64,000 bases of DNA from an uncultured Bacteroidales bacterium (GCA_902785605.1 CACZZL010000008.1:8538-72537), one strand, 5' to 3'. Positions 41,396 through 63,500 are shown, numbered from the stretch's first letter. Notes: generated by a model not told the origin, from the letters alone. Numbers and translations are program-made.

Positions 41396-41442
41396 ATGAT
41401 TATACGCTCCCGTCTGCTGCTCTTTATGGGTGGCAGACGGTG

Positions 41443-42270: not shown

Positions 42271-42404
42271 AATGGGATAATACGTATGTGTAGCAAATGA
42301 AAGCGAAGTGGGTGAATATTGTGTATAGTTTGCAGGGAATGTGGATCAGAGGCATTATGTGAGAGCTACTACCGAGGATTGCTCGGTAATTCGATAGAGA
42401 AGAT

Positions 42405-43544
42405 ATGAAACCGGAATTTATACATAGAGACGGGATGATAGCTAGTACAGATTATGTGCAATGGTTGTCCGACCTCAAGCAACGCTACCGTCAGAGCCAA
42501 ATCAAAGCGGTAGTACGCATCAATCAGTCCATGCTTGAATTCTATTGGAGCTTGGGACGTGATATTGTTGCCCTCAAAGCGGAAAGCAAATGGGGAAGTG
42601 GAGTGTTGCAACAACTGAGCATTGATTTGCAGCAGATATTCCCTGAAGAGAAGGGCTTCTCGTATAGGAATATTCGCTACATGAAACAATGGTATCTGTT
42701 TTATTGTGAGCAAGTTACAAAATGGCAACAACTTGTTGCCAAATTAGATGATTCAAATAGCCAGCAGCCTGTTGGCGAATTTTGGCAGCAACTTGTTGCC
42801 AAATTAGAAACGCCTAATTGCCACCAAGTTGGTGGCGCATTAGAGATGCCTACTGATTTTGCATTAGTTCCTTGGGGACATCATATAGAAATCGTTTCAA
42901 AATCCAATTCGCTTGACGAGGCTATATTCTATATCAATCAGACGATTGCCGGGAATTGGAGCCGGAAGAGGCTGGAAGATGAGATAAAAAGCGGCTTATA
43001 TAAACGGCAGGGAAAGGCTATAACGAATTTCTCCACTACACTTGCTCTGCCGGAACAACAGTTGGCGCAAGAAATACTCAAAGACCCGTTGGACCTTAAT
43101 TTCTTGCATCTCAAAAAAGGATACGATGAGCATGTATTGGAAGAAGCTTTGGTGACAAACATTACCAATTTTCTGCTTGAACTTGGCAAAGGTTTTTCGT
43201 ATGTGGGCAGACAAATGGAGTTACAGATGCCGGGCGGACAGACTTTTTTCCCAGACTTGATTTTCTACCATATTCCGCAACACCGATATGTAGTTGTAGA
43301 ACTGAAGGCGGTAAAGTATATTCCAGAGTTTGCAGGCAAATTGAATTTTTACGTTACTGCCGTAGATGAGTTGATGCGTGGAGAACATGACAACCCGACG
43401 GTCGGCTTGGTGATTTGCAAATCCTCGGACAAGACGGTAGTTGAATGGTCACTCAAAGATATTCAGAAACCGCTTGGCGTAGCAACTTATCAGTTAGAGG
43501 AAGTTGTTGAGCGTACAGTAAAAGAGATTGAAAACAGGAAATAG
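42405..43544 (+). CDS. yhcG: YhcG/DUF1016-family PDDEXK nuclease
   Basis: N-terminal YVQWLSDLKQRYRQSQIKAVVRINQSMLEFYWSLGRDIV and C-terminal PDLIFYHIPQHRYVVVELK (D..E.K). Internal duplication WQQLVAKLDDSNSQQPVGEFWQQLVAKLETPN. Confidence 0.75.
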   Translation: MKPEFIHRDGMIASTDYVQWLSDLKQRYRQSQIKAVVRINQSMLEFYWSLGRDIVALKAESKWGSGVLQQLSIDLQQIFPEEKGFSYRNIRYMKQWYLFYCEQVTKWQQLVAKLDDSNSQQPVGEFWQQLVAKLETPNCHQVGGALEMPTDFALVPWGHHIEIVSKSNSLDEAIFYINQTIAGNWSRKRLEDEIKSGLYKRQGKAITNFSTTLALPEQQLAQEILKDPLDLNFLHLKKGYDEHVLEEALVTNITNFLLELGKGFSYVGRQMELQMPGGQTFFPDLIFYHIPQHRYVVVELKAVKYIPEFAGKLNFYVTAVDELMRGEHDNPTVGLVICKSSDKTVVEWSLKDIQKPLGVATYQLEEVVERTVKEIENRK

Positions 43545-47085: not shown

Positions 47086-48783
47086 ATGAAACGAATTTCT
47101 CTCATGATTGTAGCGGGCTTAATGTCCGCTACAATTGCATGGGGAGCCGGAATTAATTATAACGGTACCTCGCTCACGGAAAACAATGAGTTCACCCGCA
47201 CGGAATGTGGTACTTCGTCTAAGAATGTGATGAAGGAGGTGAGTGGGCTCGCGTGCTCGCGTACTACGCCCGGTTACCTCTGGGCGCACGGCGATGAGAA
47301 CACCGGCACCAATCGTAAGATTGTCGCTATTCAGCCTTCCGGCGCGCTCGCAATGACGGTTAATCTGACCACACCGAACAATACCCGTGACGATTGGGAG
47401 GATGTCTGTACCGGCGTGTACAACAATACCAATTATCTGTTTGTCGGCGCGATCGGTGACAATGATCTGGCGTTCAACGACCAGTACTACATCTACTATT
47501 TCGAAGAACCCGCCATCACTTCCGGGACACAGACAATCACCGTAAACATCATTCACTACGGTTATCCGGACAACCAGGCGCACAATACCGAAACGCTCAT
47601 GTACGACAATGTGGAGCAGATGTTCTATATTGCCGACAAAGTGGAAGGTGTGTGTCATCTGTACAAACTGCCATTCCGTACGGACTACGGCTCAGATATC
47701 CAACGCCTCACCGAAGTGTGCGCGTTAGGTAGCGGCAGTAAGTTCAAACTCGCGAACGGCGGGGATATATCGCCTGACGGGCGGTGTATGGCTATCAAGA
47801 GTGAGAAATATGTGCTGCTGTGGGAGCGACAGGGTTCGGAGAGCCTGAGTGCCACCGCACAGCGTCTGCCGGTACAGGTCATGGCGTATCAGACAGAAGA
47901 GCAGGGTGAGTCGCTCGCTTGGTATAACGACTCCATCTTCTACACCACCAGCGATTCTAAGAAGGATACTCCTATTTACAAATACGTGCGCGGGAACAAC
48001 TCTTCCACGCCGGATCCGACTCCGGACCCAGAACCCGAACCGACTCCCGGGGTGGTAATCAACGAGATTTTCATGACCAACCACTACCAGGCGTATATCA
48101 CGGAGAGTGATACAACGACCATACATGCATATTACCTGGCAGGCGAGGCTGAACCTGCGGTGGACAGTTGTACGCTCAATGTAGGCACGACATGGGAGCA
48201 GAGCGGTAATACGCTTACGTTCGTCGGCGCGGACAGCACACAACGCATCTGTACGCTGGATTTACAGCCTGTACAACCGGTTGCTTTTACTTCTACCGAG
48301 ATCGTTTTTGATGGCACGGAGACATGGGTGAAAGGGGCGTGTGGTTTTGATGCAACCAAGAAATGGCGCATTGCCAAAACCGACGATGACTACAGCCGTG
48401 AGATGGCAGGAAAGACGCACTTGGAAATGTTTCTTCCTTCCTGCGACACCGTGGAGATAACCTCCTCTATCACCAATTACGATCGTGCCATTCGCGTCTA
48501 TGTGAATGGGGAACCGATAGGAGATAAAGTAACGCTGAAGAAAAACGGAACGCTGACATTCGCTGTAAATCAGTCTGCTGCGTTCATGTTCACGATTGCC
48601 TCGGCACAGAGTAGCGGTGACGCGGGAATTAAATCCGTCCGCATGGCGCGTAAAGGCTGGGCAACAGACATCGAAAATGTTCAAAATGTCTCTGTACAAT
48701 GTGCCAAGATCTTGCGCGACGGACAGATCTATATCGTTCGAGGAGAGCAGATCTTTACCCTAACAGGTCAATTAGTGCGATAG
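47086..48783 (+). CDS. secreted hypothetical protein with the conserved C-terminal tail
   Basis: Signal peptide MKRISLMIVAGLMSATIAWGA. Pro/Thr/Asp linker TPDPTPDPEPEPTPG. Tail VQCAKILRDGQIYIVRGEQIFTLTGQLVR. Confidence 0.55.
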   Translation: MKRISLMIVAGLMSATIAWGAGINYNGTSLTENNEFTRTECGTSSKNVMKEVSGLACSRTTPGYLWAHGDENTGTNRKIVAIQPSGALAMTVNLTTPNNTRDDWEDVCTGVYNNTNYLFVGAIGDNDLAFNDQYYIYYFEEPAITSGTQTITVNIIHYGYPDNQAHNTETLMYDNVEQMFYIADKVEGVCHLYKLPFRTDYGSDIQRLTEVCALGSGSKFKLANGGDISPDGRCMAIKSEKYVLLWERQGSESLSATAQRLPVQVMAYQTEEQGESLAWYNDSIFYTTSDSKKDTPIYKYVRGNNSSTPDPTPDPEPEPTPGVVINEIFMTNHYQAYITESDTTTIHAYYLAGEAEPAVDSCTLNVGTTWEQSGNTLTFVGADSTQRICTLDLQPVQPVAFTSTEIVFDGTETWVKGACGFDATKKWRIAKTDDDYSREMAGKTHLEMFLPSCDTVEITSSITNYDRAIRVYVNGEPIGDKVTLKKNGTLTFAVNQSAAFMFTIASAQSSGDAGIKSVRMARKGWATDIENVQNVSVQCAKILRDGQIYIVRGEQIFTLTGQLVR

Positions 48784-49726
48784 CCGTCATGGCTTCAACG
48801 ACAGGCACGGCGCGTGTGGCAACACAGGCGTCGTGTCTTCCTTTTACGCCGGCTTTTGGTGTGGATGGAGTGGGTTTGAACACGCAGCGGAACACCACTT
48901 CCGTGCCATCGGAGATGCCTCCGGAGATGCCGCCGCTGATGGCATTAATCGCACTTCCCGGTTGGGTCACACCGCCAAATCCTGTGCCGTACTCAAAACC
49001 TTTGCAGGCATTGATGCTCATGACCGCAAAGGCCAATTCGGCTTGTAACTTATTGAAAATGGGCTCGCCTACACCGGGTGGCAGACCGGTGATACGGCAC
49101 TCGATGATGCCGCCGATCGAGTCGCCGTCGCGTTGGTAAGAGGCGATCGTATCGTTGAACTTAGCGGGGTCGGTCTCGGAGCCTACTTGGATCAGTTCGG
49201 CATGAATCGTAATACCTTTCTCGGCCAACTGCTGCTTGGCGACACAGCCTGCGACCACACGTCCTGCTGTCTCGCGGGCAGAAGCTCTGCCGCCGCCTCT
49301 CCAATCGCGAATGCCGTATTTTTGCTCATACACCTTGTCGGCATGTCCGACGCGGTACGTCGTCTTCAGCCACTCGTAGTCTTCCGGCCGCGCGTCCTTG
49401 TTCCGAATAATGAACGCAATCGGCGTACCAAGGGAGACTAACTCATGATCGGAAGCGTCTTCATTTTTAATTTTTAATTTTTCATTTTTAATTACTCCCG
49501 ACAGCCACTCGACTTCGTCGGGTTCGCGCAAAGCCCGCGGCGAAACGCCCGTAACCTGTAACCCGTCACCCGTAACCCCTTTTCCCGCTCGTCTCTCTAA
49601 CTCGCGTCGGATAAGGTTCATGTCAATAACAAGCCCTGCCGGCACACCGTCCAGCACGCCGCCTATCGCTGCTCCGTGTGACTCCCCGAAGCTGGTAAAC
49701 GTCCATTTATCGCCAAAACTGTTCAT
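48755..49726 (-). CDS. aroC: chorismate synthase
   Basis: ATG 49726 (MNSFGDKWTFTSFGESHG). RPGHAD-like VGHADKVY and GGGRASARETA motifs. It holds two in-frame heptamer repeats, at 49461-49495 and 49548-49580. Confidence 0.85.
   Translation of the reverse strand: MNSFGDKWTFTSFGESHGAAIGGVLDGVPAGLVIDMNLIRRELERRAGKGVTGDGLQVTGVSPRALREPDEVEWLSGVIKNEKLKIKNEDASDHELVSLGTPIAFIIRNKDARPEDYEWLKTTYRVGHADKVYEQKYGIRDWRGGGRASARETAGRVVAGCVAKQQLAEKGITIHAELIQVGSETDPAKFNDTIASYQRDGDSIGGIIECRITGLPPGVGEPIFNKLQAELAFAVMSINACKGFEYGTGFGGVTQPGSAINAISGGISGGISDGTEVVFRCVFKPTPSTPKAGVKGRHDACVATRAVPVVEAMTAIALIDLLG
49461..49495. repeat. TTTTTAA-type heptamer repeat x5 inside aroC
   Basis: tcatttttaatttttaatttttcatttttaattac, encoding IKNEKLKIKNE on the minus strand. 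Confidence 0.9.
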
Positions 49727-49732
49727 CGCCTG

Positions 49733-49765
49733 CAAAATTACTGCTTTTTTTTGGAATACGCAAGG
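49733..49765 (-). promoter_or_regulatory. sigma-A promoter of aroC (predicts a leaderless or near-leaderless mRNA)
   Basis: The minus strand reads CTTGCGTATTCCAAAAAAAAGCAGTAATTTTGCAGGCGATG. The -7 box ends 6 nt before the ATG. Confidence 0.6.
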
Positions 49766-49810
49766 ATTTGGTGCAAAAACGAGAAAAATTGACTAATTTT
49801 GTGGATAAAT

Positions 49811-49842
49811 TTGTATAATTCAAAAAAAAATGTTACCTTTGC
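49811..49842 (+). promoter_or_regulatory. orphan sigma-A promoter with no credible ORF for about 320 nt
   Basis: TTG at 49811-49813 and TACCTTTG at 49834-49841. Confidence 0.6.
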
Positions 49843-49861
49843 AGCCGCTTTGGGTGCAAAG

Positions 49862-49886
49862 GCGTACGCACGCACGTATATGTGTG
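49862..49886. other. 25-nt perfect alternating purine-pyrimidine tract
   Basis: GCGTACGCACGCACGTATATGTGTG. Every step alternates R and Y. Confidence 0.95.
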
Positions 49887-50107
49887 AGCCCGCCCATTCG
49901 ACCCAATATCGGACCAATCACGGAGGTGTATCGGACCAATATCGTATCCCACCACACTCTATATATACTATGTATATATCCCGTGATTTTGAAATTGAGC
50001 AAAAAAATGACCAAGTGAAAATGATATAGCCCGCTTTCTCAAGGCTTAAAAGAGAGGCAAAAAGATCTTTGATATATTGAAAAAGACTGAAAAAATGTAG
50101 GCAAGTC

Positions 50108-50139
50108 TTGCATATGTCGTAAAAAAGCAGTACCTTTGC
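50108..50139 (+). promoter_or_regulatory. sigma-A promoter of the PIN toxin-antitoxin pair
   Basis: CTTGCATATGTCGTAAAAAAGCAGTACCTTTGCA. Confidence 0.7.
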
Positions 50140-50167
50140 AGCGTCAAAGGTAAAACAACAACGATAT

Positions 50168-50362
50168 ATGGAAGATGTAGTATTAAAAATGCCGACCACA
50201 GACGTAGCGCTGATAATGCAGTTTGCTAGTCGTATGGGGTGGACGATAGAGAGTCGTCGCAACCCTGTAGCGCGTTTCATTGAGGCGTGCTCCAGAAACA
50301 ATGCCGCGCTGACCGATGAAGAAATTCAAGCAGAGGTAAATGCCGTTCGATATAACAAGTAA
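50168..50362 (+). CDS. putative antitoxin of the PIN pair
   Basis: 64 aa. Its stop is 1 nt before the PIN start codon. Confidence 0.5.
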   Translation: MEDVVLKMPTTDVALIMQFASRMGWTIESRRNPVARFIEACSRNNAALTDEEIQAEVNAVRYNK

Positions 50363-50363
50363 T

Positions 50364-50780
50364 ATGAACGTCATATTAGATACCAATATTTGGATTTCCT
50401 TCCTGTTCGGGAAGCAGTTGCAGAGTGTTGCATCTGTATTTGACAATGCGAACATTAAGGTTTATGTGTCTCCGGAGCAAGTAGCGGAGATACAATCCGT
50501 ATTGTCTCGTCCCAAGATTCGCGAACATATATCCCATGAGTCGATAGAAACAATGTGGGAGTTAATGCGCACACGATGCTATCCAATTGAGGACTATCCC
50601 GCGGTTGAATCATCTATCCGCGATGTCAAGGATGCATATCTGCTGGCTATGGCAGAAGCCATACCTGCGAGTGCGATAGTAACCGGAGATAAGGATTTGC
50701 TGGTGCTTAAACAGCATAAAGAGACAGCAATAATGACCTATCAAGAGTTCTTGGTATTATTGTCCGAAATTAGACTTTAG
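50364..50780 (+). CDS. PIN-domain toxin
   Basis: MNVILDTNIWISFLFG holds the first acidic residue. DAYLLAMAEA and VTGDKDLL are typical of PIN proteins. Confidence 0.75.
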   Translation: MNVILDTNIWISFLFGKQLQSVASVFDNANIKVYVSPEQVAEIQSVLSRPKIREHISHESIETMWELMRTRCYPIEDYPAVESSIRDVKDAYLLAMAEAIPASAIVTGDKDLLVLKQHKETAIMTYQEFLVLLSEIRL

Positions 50781-50809
50781 GTGTAATATTCCTACATTTA
50801 TAAATTCAG

Positions 50810-50846
50810 TCTGACACGTTACGAAAGTTTCGTGTCAGATTTTGTT
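50810..50846 (+). terminator. intrinsic terminator after the PIN gene
   Basis: TCTGACACG (50810-50818) pairs perfectly over 9 bp with CGTGTCAGA (50831-50839). TTTTGTT follows. Confidence 0.75.
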
Positions 50847-50931
50847 ATAGTCTTTTTCAATATGGTAAATGATTTAAAGTGCAAAAAGTGCAAAGCAAAA
50901 AACGAATAATAACATAAAAACACATATAGTT

Positions 50932-51411
50932 ATGGGGAAGACAAAACTTATTGTCATTAGAGACACCCAAAATCAAGGTAAGAGTACAACCATTTGGTTG
51001 TTGTTAAAGGAATTGTTGGCTCAGGAGGCAAAGGTTATAGAATTATATAACCTTAATGAGGATCATGCTATTGAGATCCCGGATGAGATGCCACCTCAAG
51101 GGTTTATCTATGATGTATGGGCTGTGTTAGAATGGCATGAACGAAAAATTGTGTTGGATAGCAGAGGTGATTATGTGAGATATTTGGAGACAGATGTTAG
51201 GTATGCAATAAAGAATTTTGATCCGGACTTTATTGTGTGTGCAGTACAGGAACGTCCTGGCTATAACAATATTTGGAACAACTTCAATAATAAGTTCCCG
51301 AATACAAAGTATGGTCGAATCTGTTTCTGGGTAGAGCGTTCGGAAGGTGAGACCGACGCGCATATGGTTAAGCGGCCTACGATAGAGGCCATAATGAAAT
51401 ATATGGGTTAA
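50932..51411 (+). CDS. small P-loop-like protein of unknown function (protein A)
   Basis: 159 aa. Deviant Walker A RDTQNQGKSTT near the N-terminus. DFIVCAVQE could be a Walker B. The gene is AT-rich. Confidence 0.45.
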   Translation: MGKTKLIVIRDTQNQGKSTTIWLLLKELLAQEAKVIELYNLNEDHAIEIPDEMPPQGFIYDVWAVLEWHERKIVLDSRGDYVRYLETDVRYAIKNFDPDFIVCAVQERPGYNNIWNNFNNKFPNTKYGRICFWVERSEGETDAHMVKRPTIEAIMKYMG

Positions 51412-51443
51412 AGTGAAACTAATATGAAATCATAAATAATATC

Positions 51444-53090
51444 ATGGCAAGAAAATCTCCATATACAGACAAGCAATTTTTGCAACAATTGCATATAGAT
51501 AGATTACGCGGCTTAGAGAATATTGAATTGTCTTTCTGCGATAATCCAAACGAGACAAATGTTTTGGGTGTTAACAAGAAGTATATAACTGGTATTTTTG
51601 GTAAGAATGGAAGCGGGAAAACCACATTGTTACAAACAATCCTATGCTTGTATCGTCCTAAATATCATAAAGTTGGTAACGAAGAGAAAGTATTTGCAGG
51701 TGCAACATGGCTCACAAGAATGAGTAGATTTTTTAAGCATATAGATGGTGTACTATGGGGAGAGAGCCAATTCTATGCAATCTATGAGCACGACTTGCTT
51801 AAAGGGGATACCCGTACTTTTGTTACTAAAAAGGTACCTTTCTCAAAAAGTATAACTGGAAAGAAAGATTGGAAACCTCAACAGCCTCAAAAATTTAATA
51901 GAGACATATTTTATGTTCCTATTCAAACGAGTGTCCCAGATATCGAATTTATTGCAAAGGACAAATCAAATGTGTCATATAGATTTACACCAAACAGTCA
52001 GCTGAGTCCTAGTATCTTGCAAGCAGCGAGTGCTATAACAAATATTGATTATCAACTTGTAGAGGTGGGCACTACGGCTGGATTCCATAGTTACAGAGTG
52101 ACTAAACAGATAAATGGTGTATCTGTTAGATATCATTCTTTTAATATGGGAGCAGGTGAACAACGTTTATTCCGTATTCTTGATATACTCTATAATGCCC
52201 CCAAATACTCGTTAATCGCGATTGACGAATTAGACATGACCTTGCATTCTGCAGCATTGCGAAAATTAATTGATGTTATTGATGTTAAGGCACAAGAAAA
52301 AAAATTTCAGGTCTTTTTTACATCGCATAGACCAGAATTAATGGATATGCCTCAAGTGCATTCTTATTACATTATGCATAGAGGAGACCAAACTTTATGT
52401 TTAGATAATCCTACTGCAGATTGTTATGAAGAATTAAGTGGAGAACAGAATAAGCCGTTTGTTATATATTTGGAGGACAAGTTTTCTAAAGCCATAACAT
52501 CAAAGGTGCTCTCCGATTTAAACTTAATACAGCGATCAAACATAATGTCCGTTGGCACATACCATAATTGCATTGTAATGCTATATGCGGCTATAACACA
52601 AGTACATGAGAATGAAATAAAATCCAATCCTGTTGATGCCGATGTAAGGGCGGCTAATATCATTAAAGATTATGTGGCTATTTTGGATGGGGATATATCT
52701 CCAGCCATTTTACAGTCCGAAATAAATAAGGTGATAACAGGAGGCGATCCTCTTACTCAAACACGTAAACGTTGGGTACAACAACAGATACTTCAGTATA
52801 ATAGCAAACCATCGCTTATACAACAGGGCAAGAACATGTGTCCTGAAGAGTTTATCCATGAGGCGTTTAAAGCTATACAAAATCCAATGAGCAGCATTGT
52901 TGTTATGTCAAATGGTATAGTGGTTTTGGATAATGACCCACATGGGTACTTTACTACTATTTTAAATGGGAACATATTTAGTATCGAAGGGGTTATTAAT
53001 GAATTTGCGGTCACTCCTGAATGGAGTAATTACGTTGTGACCATTAAGAGTTGGGCCCAAAGTCGAAAAGTGAGCCACCAATATACGTAA
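51444..53090 (+). CDS. OLD-family-like ABC-ATPase + TOPRIM/DUF4435-like fusion (protein B)
   Basis: FGKNGSGKTTLLQ (Walker A). NMGAGEQRLFRIL (signature-like). YSLIAIDELDMTLH (Walker B / D-loop). FFTSHRPE (H-loop). The C-terminal part has PFVIYLEDKFSK (Glu) and YVAILDGDISP (DxD), as in TOPRIM. Confidence 0.6.
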   Translation: MARKSPYTDKQFLQQLHIDRLRGLENIELSFCDNPNETNVLGVNKKYITGIFGKNGSGKTTLLQTILCLYRPKYHKVGNEEKVFAGATWLTRMSRFFKHIDGVLWGESQFYAIYEHDLLKGDTRTFVTKKVPFSKSITGKKDWKPQQPQKFNRDIFYVPIQTSVPDIEFIAKDKSNVSYRFTPNSQLSPSILQAASAITNIDYQLVEVGTTAGFHSYRVTKQINGVSVRYHSFNMGAGEQRLFRILDILYNAPKYSLIAIDELDMTLHSAALRKLIDVIDVKAQEKKFQVFFTSHRPELMDMPQVHSYYIMHRGDQTLCLDNPTADCYEELSGEQNKPFVIYLEDKFSKAITSKVLSDLNLIQRSNIMSVGTYHNCIVMLYAAITQVHENEIKSNPVDADVRAANIIKDYVAILDGDISPAILQSEINKVITGGDPLTQTRKRWVQQQILQYNSKPSLIQQGKNMCPEEFIHEAFKAIQNPMSSIVVMSNGIVVLDNDPHGYFTTILNGNIFSIEGVINEFAVTPEWSNYVVTIKSWAQSRKVSHQYT

Positions 53091-53099
53091 TAATTTAAA

Positions 53100-53215
53100 C
53101 ACAAACAACATATAAAAATTATTGAGCGCGTACACGTACACGCGTACGCGAATGGAATAGAATACTAATAAAAATATAAAATATTAAAACTATCATGAAA
53201 AATTTTAATCTGGAT
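53100..53215 (+). repeat. leader / 5'-end copy 1 of the giant-gene leader family
   Basis: CACAAACAAC...ATTATTGAGCGC, then a 25-nt R/Y tract (53126-53150), then AAAAATATAAAA...ATCATGAAAAATTTTAATC. It is homologous to 53855-54029 and 57376-57560. Confidence 0.75.
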
Positions 53216-53809
53216 TCGGAGAAGTTTGTTCAAGCATTGATTGGGCTTCATGCTGACACCTTCGATATGAACGATCAACAAAGAATAATATCTTTGTCTC
53301 AAAAGTTAGAAAATAACAAAATAGGATGGGTAAACGTCAATATTAACAATCTTGTAAATAATGCTAATATTCTTTCGTATCCGGAAGATATATTGTGTTG
53401 TTACTACCCTTCAATATACCAATACCTTCAAAAAATACCAAGACAATATTGGTTCGTAATAACAATTCCTCAGGGTGTAGATACGGCAGACCCATTCTTA
53501 TATAAAAATTTTGAAAATCACTTTGAGAGTTTCATGTCAATCAAGGAAGAAATTAAGCTATGGGGATTAGGAGAATTATTGTTTTTTAAGATTGAGCAAT
53601 CGCATATTATATCTGTTTTTAATGTAGAACAACCGTGTGTAGACAATGCGAAAAATCTTTCAATTATCTTGCAACAATGGATAAATAAGCAATATTTTGA
53701 TATTTATAATAAGATTAATTATGCTTGGAAAGTAAGATATTCTAAAGTGTATGAATATGAAGATATTCCGGTGACCTTAAATAATATTGAAAAAGGTAGG
53801 ATCGCATAA
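53195..53809 (+). CDS. hypothetical protein (protein C) whose first codons derive from the repeated leader
   Basis: 204 aa and AT-rich, with no motif I recognise. It starts MKNFNL, compared with MKNLNL for the giant gene. Confidence 0.45.
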   Translation: MKNFNLDSEKFVQALIGLHADTFDMNDQQRIISLSQKLENNKIGWVNVNINNLVNNANILSYPEDILCCYYPSIYQYLQKIPRQYWFVITIPQGVDTADPFLYKNFENHFESFMSIKEEIKLWGLGELLFFKIEQSHIISVFNVEQPCVDNAKNLSIILQQWINKQYFDIYNKINYAWKVRYSKVYEYEDIPVTLNNIEKGRIA

Positions 53810-53854
53810 TATAAATTTATCAGGAGCATTGGGTTAGGTTATTCTCAAAAACAC

Positions 53855-54029
53855 CACAAACACCCAATATGAATTATTGAGCGCACACACATGCGCGTGG
53901 AGAGATAAGATAACAAAAACCCAAAAATATAAATCATCATGAAAAAACTTTAAACTTAATCAGTCGGCTATTGTCATATAGCCATGAAAAACAATCACCG
54001 CAGCGCTTCGCCCGCTATGCGGCTATGCT
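53855..54029 (+). repeat. leader / 5'-end copy 2, with a frameshifted start
   Basis: ATTATTGAGCGC, then a 19-nt R/Y tract (53881-53899), then ATGAAAAAACTTTAA (a 2-nt insertion relative to copy 3 gives MKKL-stop). About 90 nt follow that are nearly identical to 57480-57560. Confidence 0.8.
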
Positions 54030-54542
54030 CGCTGGGAAAATTTCCAAGTAGCAATCAATCGGGCAAAAGATGCATGTAACTCGCAAAATATCAATACTGA
54101 TGATCATTTTCGTGACGTCACGAAAACGATACCTATGCCTAAAGGAGCACAAAAAGAAATCAATGATGTTCTACTCTCCCGTTATGCCTGCTATCTAATT
54201 GCACAGAATGGCGATCCAAAGAAAGAAGAGATCGCTTTTGCACAGAGTTATTTTGCTGTACAGACACGCCGTGCGGAACTGATTGCAGAGCGGTTACAAC
54301 TACAGCAACGGTTAGAAAAACGCGAAGAGTTGAGAGCTTCAGAAAAACGTTTATCTCAAAATATCCCCTCTATTACTACAGAACACGTCCAGAACAATCG
54401 CACCGTGAGAGACATGATGGGTCAGCGAGGGATTAAGCCGGAGGAATTGCCGCCTGCAGAGGATATTAAGAAAGTAGAGCGGCGAGTTGCTAAAGAAGAA
54501 AAGGCTTTAGGTGAATCACAAAAACTACCCAGAAAAAAGTAA
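54021..54542 (+). pseudogene. dinD: dinD (DNA-damage-inducible protein D) remnant lacking its 5' end
   Basis: In frame from 54021: GYARWENFQVAINRAKDACN...LLSRYACYLIAQNGDPKKEEIAFAQSYFAVQTRRAELI...IKPEELPPAEDIKKVERR. There is no start codon before ATG 54135. The N-terminal roughly 40 codons are replaced by leader copy 2. The middle of the protein appears shortened. Confidence 0.6.
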
Positions 54543-54662
54543 ACGAACCAAGTCTTAAGTGTCCGAATGACACCATAAGATGGGCCGGTAAAAACAAGAA
54601 CGTAAAAGCACAACACTAACCTCGGTTAAAAGAAGGAAATACCTTAAAACTTATCAAGCAAT

Positions 54663-55562
54663 ATGAGAACAGATGGAAGCAAACTAAAGAAATTTGAATT
54701 TCCTCCCGAAGCTTATGCCATAAGGTTATATTTCAAGTGTGAAGGATGCCAAAATGAAATTGCATTGTATGACATAGAGTGCCCTGCGATTACATTTGAA
54801 CACCCAGAGCCAGATGATCTCAATGATGGAACCTCTCATAAAACATGTAGTTGTAAATACTGTGGGCATCTTTATGACGTAGATTTAAACAACAGATATG
54901 GTGCGGGAATGGGGACTATCAAAGGCTTATATGAAAATGCCTCTGTATATGTAGTCAATCAAGAATCCATAGATACTGTTTTTCAAGAAAAGATTCAGGA
55001 TCAATATTCACACATAGTTAATCAATGTTACGATGCAGACAAAATGCTTCAAGAGATAGATCCTCTGATAATTAATGAAGAAACGCGCCAATACCTCTAT
55101 AAGCTGATATATGTTTCTTTTATAGCATGTATGGAAGAATATCTTTATTTTACTTTAATCAACTTAATAACACTTAGTGAAGATAATAAGGATGCTTTTG
55201 GCGCTAATGCGGAAAAGATAAGAAGAAAAATTGAGAACGAGTTACTTATACCCGGCAAAAGCTACGAGGAGGTATTGAAGTCTATACTATTAAAGAGAAC
55301 TTTTCATCCGACTGAAGAAATTTGCGGGTACTACAATATATATGGAATAGATATATTGGAAGGGATTTCTAAAAAGATACTCGATGACGCAATTGATATT
55401 CGAAATGATATAATGCATCGAAATGGTTTGAATATTCACAATAATATAACCTCTTTAAGCAGAGAAGATATAGATGCATTAAAAAACGAGGTGCTAAAGC
55501 TCATTGGTAATGTTGAAACCCAAGTGGTAAAGTATATTAGAAATATAGAGATCCATGATTGA
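54663..55562 (+). CDS. Zn-ribbon + HEPN-like protein (protein D)
   Basis: 299 aa. CEGC (26-29) and CSCKYC (62-67) form a zinc-ribbon pattern. IDIRNDIMHRNG has R247-x4-H252 (nt 55401-55418), the HEPN Rx4-6H signature in an alpha-helical C-terminal half. Confidence 0.5.
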   Translation: MRTDGSKLKKFEFPPEAYAIRLYFKCEGCQNEIALYDIECPAITFEHPEPDDLNDGTSHKTCSCKYCGHLYDVDLNNRYGAGMGTIKGLYENASVYVVNQESIDTVFQEKIQDQYSHIVNQCYDADKMLQEIDPLIINEETRQYLYKLIYVSFIACMEEYLYFTLINLITLSEDNKDAFGANAEKIRRKIENELLIPGKSYEEVLKSILLKRTFHPTEEICGYYNIYGIDILEGISKKILDDAIDIRNDIMHRNGLNIHNNITSLSREDIDALKNEVLKLIGNVETQVVKYIRNIEIHD

Positions 55563-57216
55563 TCAAAATAAATTTCCGGTATATAGCCGCCAATATGTAG
55601 ACCTAATTAATAACAAGTTTAGGGATGGCGATTTCGTTACGATTTGTAACGATAGGCAGTTCTGCGCTCTGGTGGACGATGAACATGCCGGCGTTTACAT
55701 GCAAGGATATTCATGGGATCTGCATTTTACGGATCCCTCTGAACGAATAAGTGAGCATGATAATAAATTCCTACACTTAGATACATATAATGACGGAATA
55801 ACACCGTTCGTTTATCAAGTTGAATCTCTCGACGAGCGACCTCCATATTACTATATTGATAATGATTTTTTGGCTTTATACAAATTATTTCCACGCTATG
55901 GTGAATACAAAGAAATCTATTATGTGCAAGTGAATGTGGCTTGTGAGGAAACCATAGTAATCAAAGTAGAAGGAAGTGTTGTATCTATTCGGGAAGACTA
56001 TTTATTGGAATATCTGGCTATAAAACAATTAAACTTATTGCTGTTTTTCGATTATATTGTATATGACCCTGCAAAATTAGAAGGAGAACCCCAACGAAAT
56101 ATAGTATATTCAGATAAGGATTCGTTTTTTATTTATTGTGATGTAGAGCCAACCGGTTTGTTTCAAGAGTGGAAGTCAGGTGGCTGGTTCATGGGGAAAG
56201 TGATATATCGCCATAATAATGACATCCGGCATCTTTGGGATCCAATAGATGACAAATATGAAGATTTTATTGTTGGAGTAAAAGAAAATGGAAAACTTGA
56301 GTATAGTACTTGTGAAGAAGATAAGTTGACGAATTTATTTAATTATGAAGGAAAGGGTACTTATACTTTAACACCGGTATATTTTGATAGAGAGGTGTTA
56401 AACAGATATATTCAGAATCCTGACCGATATTCAGTACGAGATGGCTATCTTAGTGCTCCGTCATGGATGTTGAAGATGGATAATGACAGAGCAGATAATA
56501 ATATTGCTGTATTTCTGGTGGATCTGGGGCGTATTCCTTACGCGGAGCAGCAGCACTGGAAAAAATATAATGTGATACCAAAGGGACTGAGTTTGAGTAA
56601 AACTGCGGTTGCAAGAAATATCATAGGGCTATCTACTAATGCTAAAACTAATCCGGCGCACGTATTTAAGCAACAATACATTGATCTCAATCAGAAATGG
56701 GAAGCGAAATACGGTTGGCCGATATTTTTACCTTTTGGATCTCCTGAGGAAAATGAAGAATTCCAAAACTTGGACATTTTAAATACGGACAACAATTTCA
56801 AAGAACTAAAATGTAATATACTTACGATCACTAAAAGTGTTGTTGACTCATTAAATGAAATTAAAATAATTGAAGCTATCAATACTATGGGAATAGATAC
56901 GAAGGAGTATTTGGATAGCGTTAGCAAGAAAATTGGAAAAGAATTAAAGAATGTCTCTGATATATGTGGTGGAATTAATAGGCTTGAATGTCTCCTAATT
57001 ACAACTAAAAACGAAGATGTGGAATTTATTAAAACTCTTCGAAATATCCAAGAATTCCGTTCTGGCGTCATAGCCCATAGAGAACATCGGGATTCAAATA
57101 AAGCTCGCAATGCACTTAGTCTGGATAAATATGATCACCGAACAGCATTAAATCTTATATATATCGAACTGGCAAATGGCTTTGCTCGAATAAATAACGC
57201 CATTTGCAAACCCTAA
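55555..57216 (+). CDS. large uncharacterised protein with C-terminal HEPN-like Rx5H motif (protein E)
   Basis: 553 aa. The ATG overlaps the protein D stop (ATGATTGA). The C-terminus reads LRNIQEFRSGVIAHREH, with R502-x5-H508 (nt 57058-57078). The N-terminal roughly 480 aa has no motif I can name. Confidence 0.45.
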   Translation: MIDQNKFPVYSRQYVDLINNKFRDGDFVTICNDRQFCALVDDEHAGVYMQGYSWDLHFTDPSERISEHDNKFLHLDTYNDGITPFVYQVESLDERPPYYYIDNDFLALYKLFPRYGEYKEIYYVQVNVACEETIVIKVEGSVVSIREDYLLEYLAIKQLNLLLFFDYIVYDPAKLEGEPQRNIVYSDKDSFFIYCDVEPTGLFQEWKSGGWFMGKVIYRHNNDIRHLWDPIDDKYEDFIVGVKENGKLEYSTCEEDKLTNLFNYEGKGTYTLTPVYFDREVLNRYIQNPDRYSVRDGYLSAPSWMLKMDNDRADNNIAVFLVDLGRIPYAEQQHWKKYNVIPKGLSLSKTAVARNIIGLSTNAKTNPAHVFKQQYIDLNQKWEAKYGWPIFLPFGSPEENEEFQNLDILNTDNNFKELKCNILTITKSVVDSLNEIKIIEAINTMGIDTKEYLDSVSKKIGKELKNVSDICGGINRLECLLITTKNEDVEFIKTLRNIQEFRSGVIAHREHRDSNKARNALSLDKYDHRTALNLIYIELANGFARINNAICKP

Positions 57217-57343
57217 CAAAAACCCCTTTTGCATCCTTTTCGCTGCGAGAACCCAAAGCACGGTCCATTGCTGCCGATCAACTCCTACAAACCCCTCTTT
57301 TTGTGAAAAATTGAAAATATTTTTATGTTTTTCGACATTTCCC

Positions 57344-57375
57344 TTGCGGATGTCGAATTTTTTTTGTACCTTTGC
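57344..57375 (+). promoter_or_regulatory. sigma-A promoter of the giant surface-protein gene
   Basis: TTG at 57344-57346 and TACCTTTG at 57367-57374. Confidence 0.7.
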
Positions 57376-57560
57376 GCCCGTTTTATTCGGGCGCGACAGC
57401 GCAACGCATGCGTAGACGCACAAAGGTGCGCAAAAAATGAAAACATAACTAACTAAAAATATAAAACATCATGAAAAATTTAAACTTAATCGAAAGGCTA
57501 TGGACAGATAGCCATGAAAAACAATCGCCGCAGCGGTTCGCCCGCTATGCGGCAATGCTA
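57376..57560 (+). repeat. leader / 5'-end copy 3, the functional copy attached to the giant gene
   Basis: TTTTATTCGGGCGCGACAGCGCAACGCATGCGTAGACGCAC (a degenerate R/Y tract), then AAAAATATAAAACATCATGAAAAATTTAAACTTAATC...CGCTATGCGGCAATGCT. Confidence 0.75.
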
Positions 57561-60500
57561 ATCATGCTCCTCACCCTCGGTGTCGGACAGATGTGGGCGA
57601 CGGACTTGTATGTCATGAACTTCGATGGCAAATGGTCTTACTCAGATGCCAACAAGATGGAAGGCACATCTAGCCCTTGGGTTCACTATGGTTATTGGAA
57701 TACCAGTAAGGAGTTCAAAATTGCCACATCCGATTGGTCTACAGTAAATCTTGGCAAGAAGGATAGCAATCCGACAATTGGAGGCTCTGCAGTTGAAGTA
57801 ACACACGGCAGTGCTACCAATTTAACGTTCCCTACTCCTGCGAGTCAAGGTGGTATCTATAAAATTACCGTCACACTTTCAAGTGGCACTTATAAAGTTA
57901 AAATTGAAGCCGTAGCTACGGAACAAACCACATGGAGACAAATTAGTGCGCCAAAGATTTATTGGAATAACACTGATGCTGGTTACACCAATGTCACCAT
58001 GATAAATGGTCGTTATACCAATTATGGCGGGGATGGAAAAGGAACACTTGCTAGTCCGCTTACCCGCATAACGAATACCAACTTATGGTATAACACATCC
58101 ATCAGCAATGGAACAGGAGATGGCTCGTGGTTTACATCAACTCTTTTTGTCGATGCAAACTGGGATAGTTGGGAGAATAATAATGTACCTACTCAACGTG
58201 CTATGTATGCTGCGTCAAATACGGCAGTTAATACTGCTTCACTAAACAGCAAGACTTTCTTGTTCAGCGCTGCCAACGGCAACCGAGGTGCGACATTAAG
58301 CCGCTCGCAACTCTCAAGTGGCTATTCTGAATTAAACAAAACACAGACAGTCGAGGTATATGTAAAAGTAGGTAGTGGATCGTATACTAAGAGAACGAGT
58401 AGTTGGCCGGGGACACTGACGCCGGATAGATACTATTTGTCTAATGCGACGACTGCTTCGCATGTGAACAACACGGCATTGACCGCCAGTTCGAGCGTAA
58501 CCGTTTCTGCAGTACTTACTTCGGCATTTAGTTTGAGTGAGTCTTCTACAGCTGATGGTTATAATTTTGACGGTTGGGGCACAAGTTCAAGTTCTACCCC
58601 ATCTGGTAAGAATGCTGCATACTCTATTTCGTCCATCACTGGAGCAAATACAATATGCGCTTTTTTCACTGCACCGAGTTACTCTATCACCTATAATTTG
58701 AATGGAGGTACGCAACAAGTAAGTCCGGCTCCAGCGACATCATATACGGTAGAGAGTAGTGCTATTACGCTCCCGACACCGACAAGGGATGGATATGATT
58801 TCGATGGTTGGTTCGACAACTCCAGTTTTACCGGTTCGGCTATAACCACGATTGCTGCTGGTTCTACCGGTAATAAGGAGTATTGGGCGAAATGGACTGA
58901 AGCAAGTACATATTATGATGTTACGTTTGGAGTTCATGAGTCCGGCAATGGTACGTTAACTGCGGTAAAGACAGTCAATTCAGCATCTATCACATCCGGA
59001 GAAGACCTTCTATCCGGAACAGCAATCACTTTTACTGCTACCCCGAGTTCATATTATGAAGTAGAAGGATGGTACACCAACTCTGCTTGTACGTTAGGCA
59101 AACACGATGCAGGTGAAACGACGTACAGCGTTGCTTCACTTGGTAGTGATATAACTGTTTATGTGAAGTTCAAACCGATTACATATAATATTACGTATAA
59201 CTTAAATAGCGGTACGAACAATCCGGGTAACCCTGCTACATATACCTATGAGAGTTCGGCTATTACTTTGCTAGACCCGACAAGGGACGGCTATACGTTT
59301 GGTGGTTGGTACACGGAAGTCGGATTGACGAACCGTGTATATAGTATTGCTGCGGGTTCTAACGGCAATAAAGCTTTCTGGGCTAAATGGACCGAGAAAA
59401 TGACGACCGTTACTGTTAACGTCAGCCCTTCAGGAGCCGGTACATTAACAGTCGGTGGCGCCGCTTTTACGCCTGGCAATACAACTACCGCTGGTGTCAC
59501 GACAAGTCGTACGGTTGTAGCAACTCCGGCGAGTGGAAAAGTGTTCTTAGATTGGTCTGTATCCGGCAATGCAACGGGTACGAATTCTACCAACACTTAC
59601 ACATTGAAAGGTAATGGAAGTGCAGGTACAGGAACCTTGACGGCGAACTTTGGTGTTGCTTCCGGTTGGTATATGGAAGGAACTGCGTTTGGCGGATGGG
59701 TTAGGCCTAATACTGCTACATATCAGTTCGCCCGTCCTTACCGTGGAATGGAGAATGTATTTTACTATCCGGCTTCTCTGGCAGCAAGTAGTTATTGGAA
59801 AGTTAATGATGGAACGAAACCATATAGCATTAGCAACTCAACTACAGCCATAACGAAAAAAACAATCTATTCGCTTACAGAAGAGTGGAGTAATTCAACC
59901 TATGCTTCATCAGCAATGACTAACATCTGGGTTGTTCTTGACAAGAGCAATAAAAAGTTATGGGTGCAGGACCCGCAAACGTATTATAATGTAAATGTGA
60001 GCGGCGCAAATGATTCCAAAGGTCCGGTAAAAGTGACGTTGAAGACAACTTCGGCATTTACCAAGGGAGACAATGTCTTTGAAACTACGCAATTTGCGAA
60101 TGGAGAGACCTTTACTATAACGGTAACACCTGTAACAGGTTACATTCCGACCATTACTATAGGAGGTAATACCCCTGTAACATGGTGGAAAGAGCAAGCA
60201 ACGTATACCGCTGATGGGACGATGAGCACCAGCGATATTACAGTTACTATCTCCTATACTCCGACGCGTGCCGTGCGGTTTGCGAAAACAACTGGTTGTA
60301 AGACATTGACGGCAACTGGCCCGGAGTCTACTAGTGTATCGGATAATACGAAGATCAAAGATGGTACGGAAATCACATTCTCTCAAGAGAATAGTGATGG
60401 TTATACGTTCAGTAAGTGGTATAGTAATAATACCGGAATCAGCGGAACGACATACTCTACGGAAGACGACGATTATACGTTGACCGTTTCTTCTACGGCT

Positions 60501-63500
60501 TATACCATTTATCCGATTTATACGGAGAATATGACTACCGTTAACTTGGTGGCAAGTCCGACGGGTAAGGGAACATTTACCAGTGGAGACGATGCAGTAA
60601 CATCTGTTTCTGCAGGTGTAACGACACACCCGACAGTAACGGCTGTACCTGCTTCCGGATATCGCGTGAACACCAGTGCTACCGTTTGGAGTGAGAGTAG
60701 TGATTATATCACTATTTCGGCAACCAATGCAGCATCTACAACGATTACAGGTAGCGGAACAAGTGGCAATTCGGCTACCTTGACTGCTACGTTTACGCCT
60801 ATAGTATATACTATCACGCTGAATGATAATGAGGGTAGCGGCGGTGTTGGTTCGGCAACGGTTACGTTTGACGATGACAACTTTGCATTCGCTTCTTCTT
60901 TCGTAGCTCCGACGCGTACGGGTTATATCTTCCAAGGATATTATACTTCGTCTTCGATGGATGTTGGTGATCAACTTATTGATAAGGAGGGAAATTGGCA
61001 CTCTGACACGGAGCCATATGTATATATTGATGGCGGCGGTAATTGGATATATCCTAATAATATGACACTCTATGCCGGTTGGACACCGATCACCTTCACT
61101 ATCCACTATGATGCCAATGGCGGTAGCGGATCGATGGACGACCAAGTTGCCAAATATGAAGTAGAAAGTTCGTTAGACGGTCAGAATTCCTTTATATCTA
61201 CGAATGGCTTTACGGCTCCGACCGGGTATGGTATTTATTATCCGGCTCATCCTTGGAACACAAGCGCTGATGGAACAGGAACAGATATTGATGCCGCTAC
61301 TTATCAAAGCACGTTGACAAGTACGAATGGCGCAACTGTTAATTTGTATGCACAATGGAGCGGTAGATTTGCATTGAAGGCTAATTATGATGGCGGTGTA
61401 GATGGATACTTCCGTATTCATTATAATACGTCAATTATTGAAACATTGACCACTCTTTACCCAACCCGTCTCGGATATTTGTGTGATGGATACTATACGG
61501 CAGCAGAGGATGGAACCAAAGTTCTTAACGGTAATGGTACCGTTGTAGATGGAAATGTAAGCGGTTATGTAACCGGTGGTAAATGGACTTACAAAGGAAC
61601 TCAGGACTTCTATGCTCATTGGAACCAAATCAAATATAATCTTGCTTTTGACGGCAACGACTGTGCTGCTTATGTGGGCGAAGCAACCGGTTCTAAAGCA
61701 AGCATGGCCAATGTGGAATACGAGACTGATGTAGATATCACAGCCGGTACATTAGCCCGTGAAGGTTATACATTCGCAGGTTGGTCGAAAACGGCTTGTG
61801 CAACGAGTCCGACCTATGTTGGCAGCACAACGCGTCATATATCCTCCACAGATGGAGATAATGTGACATTGTATGCTGTTTGGAACGCAAAAAATTATAC
61901 CATCTCATTTAATGCTTTGGGTGGTGACTGCTACACTACATCCAAATCCGTTGCTATGGGCGCAAACTATGGATCTTTGCCGACGGCTTATGGTAACTCA
62001 GGTTATGAGTTCGTAGGCTGGTATACGCGTCCGGAAGGTGGTACGTTAGTGACAGAAGAGACCCAAATGGTTACCGCTTCTGACCATACTTTGTACGCGC
62101 ATTATGAAAAGAAAGAACGCGTATATTTCAAGAATACCCTGGGATGGGAGAGTGTATATGTCACATGGGATGCTACTTGGAACTATAATAGTGAAGACAA
62201 GGGAGCTGGTGCTAGGGGCAAGACGCAGGAATTGATGAGTCACATCTACGGAACAGATATCTGGTATAAGGATGTTCCGGCGGCAATTCTCAGCTCTTGG
62301 AAGGGCAACATTGCATTTACCAATATTGCCATGCCAAACTATGATTGGTTCGATGATGGTCAGGCTGTTTATCGTCGTGACTTTGACTCGGATGCAACGA
62401 TGTTCGTTCCAACGCCGAATGATCCTTACAAATATACGAAGAATACACACGATCCTAAACCGGGTACGGTATATTACAGCACGGACATGATTGTGGATGA
62501 GGATGGCTCAGGTAACCCAACCAATTATCGTTATAAGAACGGTTATTGGGTACGCTATGACGAGTTGCAATCCGGTTATACAGTTAAAGGTAGCTGGAAA
62601 TGGGCTGATGACCACTATGTGGAGAGACACAGTTTGGATGACTCTACATATGTATTCACGATTCGTAACTTGTCGGCAAATTCTAATTATTGGTTCAACC
62701 TGTACAAGCACTGTACAACGGATAATGATTACAGCTCTGTCTTCAAACCGGCAGCAGATATGACATCTGCAAGTTCGGATGTTGTATTCAGTGCACAGTA
62801 TGCAGGCGGTGGCGATAAGAAGATGACGACAACTGTAGCCGGTGACTATACGTTCAAGTTCGTCTTCAGCGCGTTAGGTGAAATTCGACTGACGATTGAA
62901 TACCCGTTAGCCGTTAATGACTACCGTGTAGTATATGGTTGGAACGATGGTAGTGCGCAAACTTTCTCGTCTGAGTATATCAAGGCGAAAGCAGATGCAG
63001 TAGATACCATCTCTATGTTCATCCACTCCGGTGATAATGCTACTGATCGTTCGCTCTACATCCAGAAGTGTACCGGTATTACCGCTGGTGTGCCGACCTG
63101 GAATACCACTTACAGCGCTATCACGCTGCCTTCAGAGACGGCAAGCGGTAAGACTTCCGGTGTATATAACTTCCGTATTGCACAAAACGGTAGTGCTGCA
63201 GCTACTGGTGAAAGTATTGGTAAGTACGATGGTAATTATTACATCCGTACGGATAGTGCTGCCGGTGGTTGGGACTTCTATAAAGAGTATCCGTCCAGCC
63301 AGATGACGTTCTCTGAGTACTCGTTATCGCAGACTCTGTCCGCTCCGTATAGCCACTATTATTGCCAATATGTGGGTAATTCCTCAACGGATATCAGTTA
63401 TACGATAGCAACAGACTATAGTCCTGCAATCTGTCCGATTCAGGAAGGTGATGCCACGATCGGTGTAGGTAATAAGACGTTGCCTTCCGGCAAACCGGCA

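Follow-up and report, generated by a model that had tools for sequence, protein, structure and literature searches.

How did one short module come to stand three times, in the same orientation, among otherwise unrelated genes? The question is raised by a 64,000-nt stretch of DNA from an uncultured Bacteroidales bacterium (the window, along which all positions are counted), in which an island of plus-strand genes leads up to the gene of a giant secreted repeat protein (Table 1). A first-pass annotation had taken the copies for leaders of this gene, regenerated whenever foreign genes were inserted as cassettes. Comparison with other contigs, which are given L numbers, indicates instead that the module is the head shared by the genes of a multigene family, which encodes giant secreted Flg_new-repeat proteins and is restricted to one lineage, rumen Paludibacteraceae. 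The island is best explained, with a probability of about 0.68, by deletion scars together with homologous recombination on this dispersed family-head repeat and by no dedicated recombinase.

The module and its gene family

The three same-strand copies, described beforehand as a module of 110-190 nt, were confirmed. Copies 2 and 3 are 87% identical over 86 ungapped nt (53944-54029 and 57474-57559) and copies 1 and 2 are 77% identical over 43 nt (53100-53142 and 53855-53897). Copy 1 is the weakest of the three, with a 30-nt core that is 73-80% identical to both other copies. As gene starts in Bacteroidota are generally A-rich, a profile was built from the leader alone, using 36 family loci, and 738 kb of other Paludibacteraceae DNA served as control. 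The three copies scored 47.0, 26.7 and 21.4 bits and no fourth match was obtained within the 64 kb of the window; the control yielded one 11-bit match, adjoining another Flg_new gene. Copies 2 and 3 were recovered by nhmmer at E=2.4e-33 (profile positions 54-192) and E=1e-61, and copy 1 matched the leaders of L084 (75.7% over 103 nt, E=5e-9) and L151 (82.5% over 80 nt, E=7e-14), its palindrome included in both cases. The consensus CACAAACA...TTATTGAGCGC that had been proposed for the module holds for copies 1 and 2 but not for copy 3, whose upstream untranslated region (UTR) differs, and the purine/pyrimidine (R/Y) tracts noted within it are present but are predicted to fold as short G+C-rich palindromic hairpins.

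The module consists of a 5' UTR and an extended signal peptide of 43 residues (MKNLNLIERLWTDSHEKQSPQRFARYAAMLIMLLTLGVGQMWA) that ends in MWA or MWG. When the first 300 residues of the giant protein were used as a query, 18 database proteins were retrieved that are 74-93% identical over the first ~45 residues only and show no similarity beyond the predicted cleavage site (MWA|). When a profile was searched exhaustively against 1.84 billion representatives, 137 clusters were obtained at E<=1e-3, 96 of them at E<=1e-10, and the match nearly always covered residues 1-48 of proteins of 1,300-3,334 aa. A scan of metagenomes detected 56 rumen loci carrying the module. At the DNA level, 57435-57600 (36 nt of UTR and the 129-nt signal peptide) is 80-93% identical to rumen loci, and in the alignment of the heads (alignment A3) homology again ends at the predicted cleavage site. 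Many proteins with unrelated mature parts thus have this 5' UTR and signal peptide in common. It is this shared N-terminus, with DNA identity that stops at the cleavage site, that points to a common head. The module is not a property of one adhesin, as had been assumed, but the 5' end shared by at least 137 protein clusters, and it does recur at paralogous genes and other variable loci, where its copies flank accessory genes. A Pfam search with a 2,176-aa fragment of the giant protein returned only Flg_new and Flg_new_2 and no curated signal-peptide model, NCBIfam gave no match to residues 1-300, ESPR-type models included, and a literature search on the giant secreted protein family found no paper.

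Copy 3 heads the live family gene, in agreement with the first-pass annotation; the protein has 2,637 aa in full, a length taken from L001. A Bacteroidetes-type -7 box (TACCTTTG) precedes this copy only, so that the earlier restriction of a canonical promoter to copy 3 was correct. Intergenic -7 boxes between 49.7 and 57.6 kb were found at 49834, 50131 and 57367 only; a sigma-70 scan scored the real sequence no better than shuffles, as expected for Bacteroidota. Further copies of the promoter module were detected in L083 (two), L091, L104, L118, L123 and L140 (two).

According to the predicted fold, the head begins with an upstream G+C hairpin, the ~60 nt of A-rich leader that surround the ATG are unstructured, and a further hairpin forms at +25 to +42. 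The latter lies in the coding region (57496-57513 in copy 3, 53966-53983 in copy 2; columns 118-138 of alignment A3), and its stem GGCTAT/ATAGCC is invariant in at least 30 copies, synonymous sites included, around a hypervariable loop of 6-9 nt. In another variant of the N-region, CAACTC-TCAAT-GAGTTG is found where this stem sits. RNAalifold, applied to 41 module copies, returned one 5-bp helix (CCGCA/TGCGG) and did not select the GGCTAT/ATAGCC hairpin; as no covariation was seen, a conserved RNA fold is not supported.

The family proteins also have a conserved C-terminus (...DGKAHKFIENGxMYILQNGVxYDAQGKRV(Q/K); L083 11616, L086 12015 and the gene end in L117), which may be a secretion or sorting signal. 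NCBIfam gave no match to it and a type IX secretion system (T9SS) sorting domain is therefore not claimed. Behind complete family genes comes a small gene that encodes a signal peptide of its own (L083, L086, L117).

Gene remnants and the exchange of island content

Comparison with homologues showed that copy 1 is a family head that breaks off behind codon 6, where it is joined to protein C, whose first codons it replaces. The five homologues of protein C start with MNEDF or MN(N/K)EEF and have 198-199 aa, and the window version has MKNFNL grafted on, which verified the claim that copy 1 donates this start. The protein is also a mosaic, its last ~150 residues being identical to database protein P0019 and its first ~55 diverged. 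In L151, a homologue of protein C lies directly upstream of a family gene as the last of a tight group of four genes (157, 373, 90 and 198 aa), which may represent an undescribed defence system.

Copy 2 was likewise shown to be a dead head, frameshifted and derived from another paralogue, whose gene once stood behind protein C. Its translation (KTLNLISRLLSYSHEKQSPQRFARYAAML) is the 'LLSYS' subfamily variant of other paralogues, as opposed to the WTD variant of copy 3, and a 2-nt (CT) insertion turns its start into ATG AAA AAA CTT TAA, exactly the MKKL-stop that had been read there. Along protein C, the UTR behind it and copy 2 (53246-54030), the window runs collinear with L151 8034-8807 (89.4% over 791 nt), where the same head opens an intact family gene of 2,934 aa. 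This collinearity is decisive and makes copy 2 the stump of a family gene once located behind protein C. In L140, the same CT insertion is present in the leader-2 head, which is cut after codon 7 and not after codon 30 as in the window. The frameshift was already in place in the ancestor shared by both haplotypes found, and one frameshift with two cut points fits independent decay of an already dead gene. Regeneration of the leader at each insertion was not borne out: identity of copy 3 is higher with heads from other loci (91-93%) than with copy 2 (79-87%), and copy 2 has its own subfamily variant and its own collinear counterpart.

The dinD gene joined to copy 2 is truncated at its 5' end, as had been described. 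Its first 39 codons are gone (profile positions 40-157 of 288 are covered), an internal in-frame deletion of ~72 codons is apparent against the full-length genes in L103, L099 and L140, and its frame is +1 relative to the signal-peptide frame at the junction. The microhomology breakpoint proposed for this junction is supported, with an overlap of 12 nt and imperfect microhomology. The statement that the locus does not reflect random decay met with a divided outcome. A variable hotspot it is, but the out-of-frame, doubly truncated dinD and the frameshift in both haplotypes look like decay. Inside dinD, a near-perfect 28-nt palindrome (54103-54130; ATCATTTTCGTGAC|GTCACGAAAA(C/T)GAT) was observed, which is the sole dinD remnant just upstream of family leaders in L088 (5928-5958) and L085 (4320-4376). 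An Rfam E-value scan of 49000-58500 returned nothing but a spurious miRNA-like (mir-153) match on this palindrome. A stem-loop with loop CATTGG(G)TT and tail CTCACAA, not in Rfam, is located at the start of several family 5' UTRs (window 53816-53850; L093 5922, L097 1040, L103 5928, L131 4607, L138 380, L155 3850, L151 8604); the stem sequences differ, yet the pairing is kept.

The host group is ruminant-gut Paludibacteraceae. Among Genome Taxonomy Database (GTDB) species representatives, the top matches of the window's chorismate synthase gene aroC (48755-49726, minus strand) were all rumen metagenome-assembled genomes, with at most 80% amino acid identity to any representative. Core DNA has a G+C content of ~52% and the interval 50.0-57.3 kb of ~32-41%. 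The island and the giant gene were found, as DNA or protein, in 0 of 80 GTDB aroC neighbourhoods, the sole exception being a distant Flg_new gene (L029). An exact-protein look-up with aroC read from a TTG start gave no match; read from the ATG start, the exact protein was retrieved on eight contigs, all eight with the window arrangement.

Closer relatives were identified through the PIN protein of the island, which is encoded in identical form on 16 contigs, 13 with the window arrangement and three (L140, L141, L144) with a different one. Window 49463-50863 corresponds to L140 1-1401 at 98% and homology stops at 50863. Beyond this point the three contigs encode RdrA-like and RdrB-like proteins and a Csx27-like membrane protein, followed by the leader-2 relic; then come a promoter-module copy driving full-length dinD, a metallo-beta-lactamase-like gene and a 251-aa gene, and lastly another signal-peptide relic, a promoter module and a family gene starting MKKINLIE. 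Inside the variable region the haplotypes have in common only a relic head, dinD and the promoter/head module. The RADAR-like system (L140/L141 1552-7574; RdrA-like, 962 aa; RdrB-like adenosine deaminase, 841 aa; Csx27-like, 204 aa) fills the slot that p159, the AAA ATPase and protein C occupy in the window (50864-53900), and the defence-model matches of this haplotype are RdrA, RdrB, Csx27-like and LmuA-like. The window itself contributes PIN, AAA_21 (HEC-04/AriA/AbiL-like), dinD (PDC-S13) and a weak HEPN match, and other loci YhcG, ParE, RloB and RhuM; this defence content is given by listing and not as an enrichment statistic. Different content at the same position in close strains, next to a nearly identical flank, is what a defence hotspot displays, and the integration hotspot proposed by the first-pass annotation is upheld by it; the organisation is not identical in all relatives.

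The same holds on a larger scale. The 146 open reading frames (ORFs) upstream of the family genes in 36 other loci are overwhelmingly on the strand of the family gene and abut its leader, and the 130 same-strand proteins among them fall into 87 clusters, largely singletons. Recurrent Pfam families are DUF1016/YhcG, Bro-N, ParE, AAA_21+RloB, PIN, RhuM, HEPN and 23S_rRNA_IVP. Defence and toxin-antitoxin genes were thus shown to precede family genes habitually, in the same orientation and at close range, and in L083, L085, L087, L092, L105 and L118 such genes stand between heads arranged in direct tandem. Two near-identical strains, represented by contigs L099 and L102, were shown to have recombined inside the module. 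Their identity is 99.58% over the 3,569 nt that end with the signal peptide; within the head, identity falls after ~+55 nt, and the mature parts are then unrelated for ~4 kb. Directly behind the common promoter they also exchange dinD for a small ORF.

Another recurrent product of these loci is an ORF that encodes the signal peptide only. It comprises the leader and 40-45 aa, with a stop 0-2 codons from the cleavage site (...ATGTGGGGA TAA/TAG), and precedes at least five unrelated sequences (L083 4414, L085 5310, L087 1175 and 2177, L092 48, L104 1477, L105 142, L118 513, L128 1-84, L140 10971-11073). Several are called as public proteins (P0063, P0127, P0146). An origin by in-frame deletions that reach the 3' end of the gene was rejected, as complete family genes precede a different gene and not the promoter module.

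By deletion and homologous recombination, the island would have arisen from three 5'-flank islets (p159-AAA, then C, then dinD-HEPN-p553). These would have come together through the loss of two giant family genes in illegitimate, microhomology-mediated deletions, which left leader stumps fused to the next gene, and ordinary homologous recombination in the head/promoter repeat (165-300 bp) would swap either side between strains. Since head and promoter module form a dispersed repeat of this size, 5' flanks could become defence-gene hotspots without a dedicated recombinase. Support for the three-islet history is provided by counterpart islets upstream of family genes: in L128 two module copies enclose a homologue of p159, the group with protein C in L151 has been described above, a HEPN homologue is found directly upstream of the family gene in L094, dinD occupies this position in L099, L103 and L116, and the same antitoxin/PIN pair (76% nucleotide identity) directly precedes the family gene in L117.

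Several points weigh against this explanation. The constant end of the signal-peptide-only ORFs is not predicted by random deletion. No contig was found with an intact family gene behind the AAA ATPase or at the copy-1 position, among relatives whose contigs are short and whose third genes vary; the lost-gene origin of copy 1 is for this reason only conjectured. The loci compared lie on metagenome contigs, which may be closely related, and some seemingly independent cases may therefore be orthologous. Lastly, a site-order permutation within the module gave 34% incompatible site pairs without a distance effect (p=0.44), a result that neither supports nor excludes recombination.

Neighbouring genes and leader-like pieces

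Two further leader-like pieces, missed by the first-pass annotation, lie at 49805-50024 and 50876-50931. Within the former, 49805-49886 is 75-86% identical to L100, L127, L113 and L094, and 49943-49994 is 90% identical to the UTR directly before the L086 family gene. The latter, 'leader 0', contains an AAGTGC...AAAGCAA element with 16 sites in family loci, always on the plus strand, one in the window and none in the 738 kb control. The form AAGTGC(C)AAAGCAA (window 50879-50903; L085-L105) is intergenic, confined to the islets of family genes, often doubled and always on the family-gene strand, and in L140 an element of this type precedes the RdrA-like gene as well.

The AAA_21 ATPase next to p159 matched the PADLOC models HEC-04 (6e-25), AriA (4e-23) and AbiLi (9e-18). 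In close relatives of the p159+AAA pair, a variable third gene follows 20-40 nt downstream, where the window has copy 1; it encodes a 162-aa protein without assignment or a metallo-beta-lactamase-like protein (L155/L156 3296-3784; L157/L158 3320 onwards; L154). The HEPN_RiboL-PSP match of the HEPN-like protein (8e-4) is under the Pfam cut-off, and its overlapping partner p553 has 553 aa. Outside the island, a YhcG/DUF1016 nuclease gene (42405-43544) is part of an islet of low G+C content (41-44 kb) that is surrounded by sugar-utilisation genes. The YhcG family is the commonest cargo between module copies in other loci; in the upstream flank of the window gene (41330-42430, the only side read) neither a module nor a junction element was seen, and the module profile gave no match there.

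Table 1. Features of the island and of the start of the giant gene, in window coordinates
Feature	Position	Strand	Support
Dispersed promoter/5'-UTR-like pieces near aroC: -7 box TTACCTTTG at 49834, R/Y tract, CCACCACAC...CCCGTGATTTTGAAA	49805-50024	+	
Antitoxin-like ORF (50168-50362) and PIN toxin (50364-50780), own promoter at 50131	50168-50780	+	PIN_3 E=1e-15
Hairpin behind PIN gene; right-hand end of flank common to alternative haplotype	50810-50863	+	
'Leader 0': AAGTGC...AAAGCAA element and A-rich leader before p159	50876-50931	+	
p159 (50932-51411) and AAA_21/ABC-type ATPase (51444-53090), candidate defence pair	50932-53090	+	AAA_21 E=3.5e-21
Module copy 1: family 5' UTR (palindrome 53127-53150, A-rich leader) and first six codons MKNFNL	~53097-53212	+	alignment, profiles
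Protein C, 204 aa, no family match, chimaeric N-terminus	53195-53809	+	
Module copy 2: stem-loop with loop CATTGGGTT, palindrome 53881-53896, leader, frameshifted signal-peptide codons 1-30	53816-54029	+	nhmmer, alignment, profiles
Module/dinD junction	54018-54029	+	12-nt overlap, imperfect microhomology TGCGGnnATGC
dinD (Bro-N / PDC-S13) pseudogene	54030-54542	+	NF008573 2e-60; PDC-S13 3e-63
HEPN-like protein (54663-55562) overlapping p553 (55555-57216), candidate defence pair	54663-57216	+	
Promoter module: terminator-like hairpin 57331-57357, -7 box TACCTTTG 57367-57374, then hairpin GCGCCCG...CGGGCGC	57219-57400	+	
Module copy 3: UTR hairpins, unstructured A-rich leader, 43-codon signal peptide, hairpin 57496-57513	57401-57599	+	nhmmer, folding, alignment A3, profiles
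G+C-rich hairpins/palindromes	53127-53150, 53881-53896, 57399-57413, 57417-57430	+	folding
Giant secreted repeat protein	57471-64000, runs past window end	+	Flg_new E=2.5e-49, 5 stretches

Other explanations, known systems and significance

The possibility that the stumps (copies 1 and 2 and 'leader 0') are under selection and retained as working translation-initiation regions or RNA processing sites for cytoplasmic cassette genes with promoters further upstream is compatible with the deletion-and-recombination explanation, although it is considered unlikely. Translation initiation in Bacteroidota takes place without a Shine-Dalgarno sequence, on A-rich unstructured leaders. Such an unstructured stretch around the ATG is predicted to be kept in each stump, protein C uses the family ATG and first six codons, and the lack of a -7 box outside coding DNA between 50131 and 57367 means that the cassette genes need read-through and good leaders. 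However, translation from the ATG of copy 2 would end after four codons, in front of a dinD that is itself a pseudogene, and homologues of protein C elsewhere do without this leader, the gap to the preceding gene in L151 being 16 nt.

Clearly less probable is the model of the first-pass annotation, a site-specific, integron- or shufflon-like cassette system in which a dedicated recombinase would act on a core site in the module, add or swap cassettes at the 5' end of family genes and duplicate this site each time. Integron arrays consist mostly of promoterless cassettes on one strand behind a promoter, with a recurring element between them and a cargo rich in defence and toxin-antitoxin genes. 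The island is similar in its cargo, in being one-stranded and, with its three intergenic -7 boxes, largely promoterless, and its cassettes are bounded by a small vocabulary of recurring elements. The constant stop of the signal-peptide-only ORFs, the small palindromes at the copy-2 breakpoint (CCGC-TAT-GCGG), the coding-region hairpin with its invariant stem and variable loop, and an identical module/YhcG junction in L085, L087, L104 and L105 would also suit such a system. Unlike in an integron, the junctions are heterogeneous and involve truncated pseudogenes, and the repeat is a 5' UTR with a signal peptide. Breakpoints fall at no fewer than five positions of the module (codon 6, codon 7, a ATGAAAAA|CAATC deletion, codon 30 and the signal-peptide end), copies at the same locus are not nearest relatives, and the genes fused to stumps are truncated pseudogenes or chimaeras and no clean cassettes. 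Pfam detected no integrase, transposase or other recombinase family, IntI included, among the island ORFs, nor was one found among the upstream families with at least two of the 146 ORFs (25 of 64 families are listed; single matches are possible). No attC-type site was recognised by eye, with no attC model applied, among the recurring elements (leader, AAGTGC...AAAGCAA, CATTGGGTT stem-loop), and Rfam returned none. The earlier interpretation is accordingly supported in part: the hotspot and the swapping of content between strains stand, the site-specific mechanism is judged improbable, and the leaders appear to be inherited stumps of paralogues.

Nearly all copies are direct, which excludes switching by inversion. 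The three window copies share one orientation, no invertase was found, and the only inverted head pair seen is in L117 (807-943, minus, and 5863, plus), ~5 kb apart and flanking a PIN pair like that of the window. The vsp, vsa and vpma loci of Mycoplasma have conserved 5' ends and vary in phase by means of a neighbouring site-specific recombinase and inverted sites. In common with them, conserved 5' UTR and signal-peptide DNA is found here on divergent mature parts, and recombination in the head re-pairs bodies, as in L099 and L102; they differ in that the copies here are direct, that a recombinase was not detected and that cytoplasmic defence genes fill the space between heads.

A shade more doubtful than the cassette model in general is the proposal that the head, with its conserved coding-region hairpin and its sharp 3' edge, is the true attachment site of an undescribed Paludibacteraceae cassette-exchange system. 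If it were, this system would provide the bodies of giant surface proteins with new expression heads and would also place captured defence genes under the control of family promoters, and the signal-peptide-only ORFs would be empty sites. A mere compositional resemblance of A-rich gene starts, which in Bacteroidota often open ATGAAAAA, is scarcely credible: copy 1 has just ~30-43 nt in common with the other copies, but the single weak control match is far below the 21-47 bits of the window, copy 1 matches two outside leaders with its palindrome, and the profile match to copy 2 is strong; for copies 2 and 3, chance is already refuted.

Extended signal peptides are known from autotransporters (ESPR) and from Gram-positive bacteria (YSIRK or KxYKxGKxW). 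The head resembles all of these: very large surface proteins carry a long conserved n-region, which is followed by an ordinary hydrophobic core and then by a type I cleavage site. In contrast to these, it has no sequence relationship to them (Pfam, NCBIfam) and a narrow distribution, 137 clusters in the representatives searched.

Core defence hotspots are located between conserved genes, as in cDHS1 and cDHS2 of Pseudomonas aeruginosa (PMC10250203), and P2/P4 elements carry defence hotspots as well (PMC9122126). The island agrees with both in its fixed position, conserved flanks and strain-variable mixture of known or candidate defence genes with many unknown ones, the content swapped here being the RADAR-like genes, the AAA_21 pair and HEPN-p553. 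It deviates from them in that one flank is the head of a multigene family with many members per genome and not a single-copy core gene, that this type of islet recurs before many paralogues, and that relic heads lie inside the islet.

The odd repeat is thereby explained as the head of a family of giant secreted proteins that had not been described before and is restricted to one lineage of uncultured rumen bacteria. For annotators, this carries the warning that short 'MKN...QMWG' ORFs and chimaeric N-termini in these genomes are recombination products. The head also provides a cheap sequence tag for variable islets with candidate defence genes such as p159+AAA, protein C with its partners and HEPN+p553. 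On the deletion-and-recombination explanation, defence hotspots can form without mobile-element genes, as a dispersed head would supply both portable homology and ready-made expression signals.

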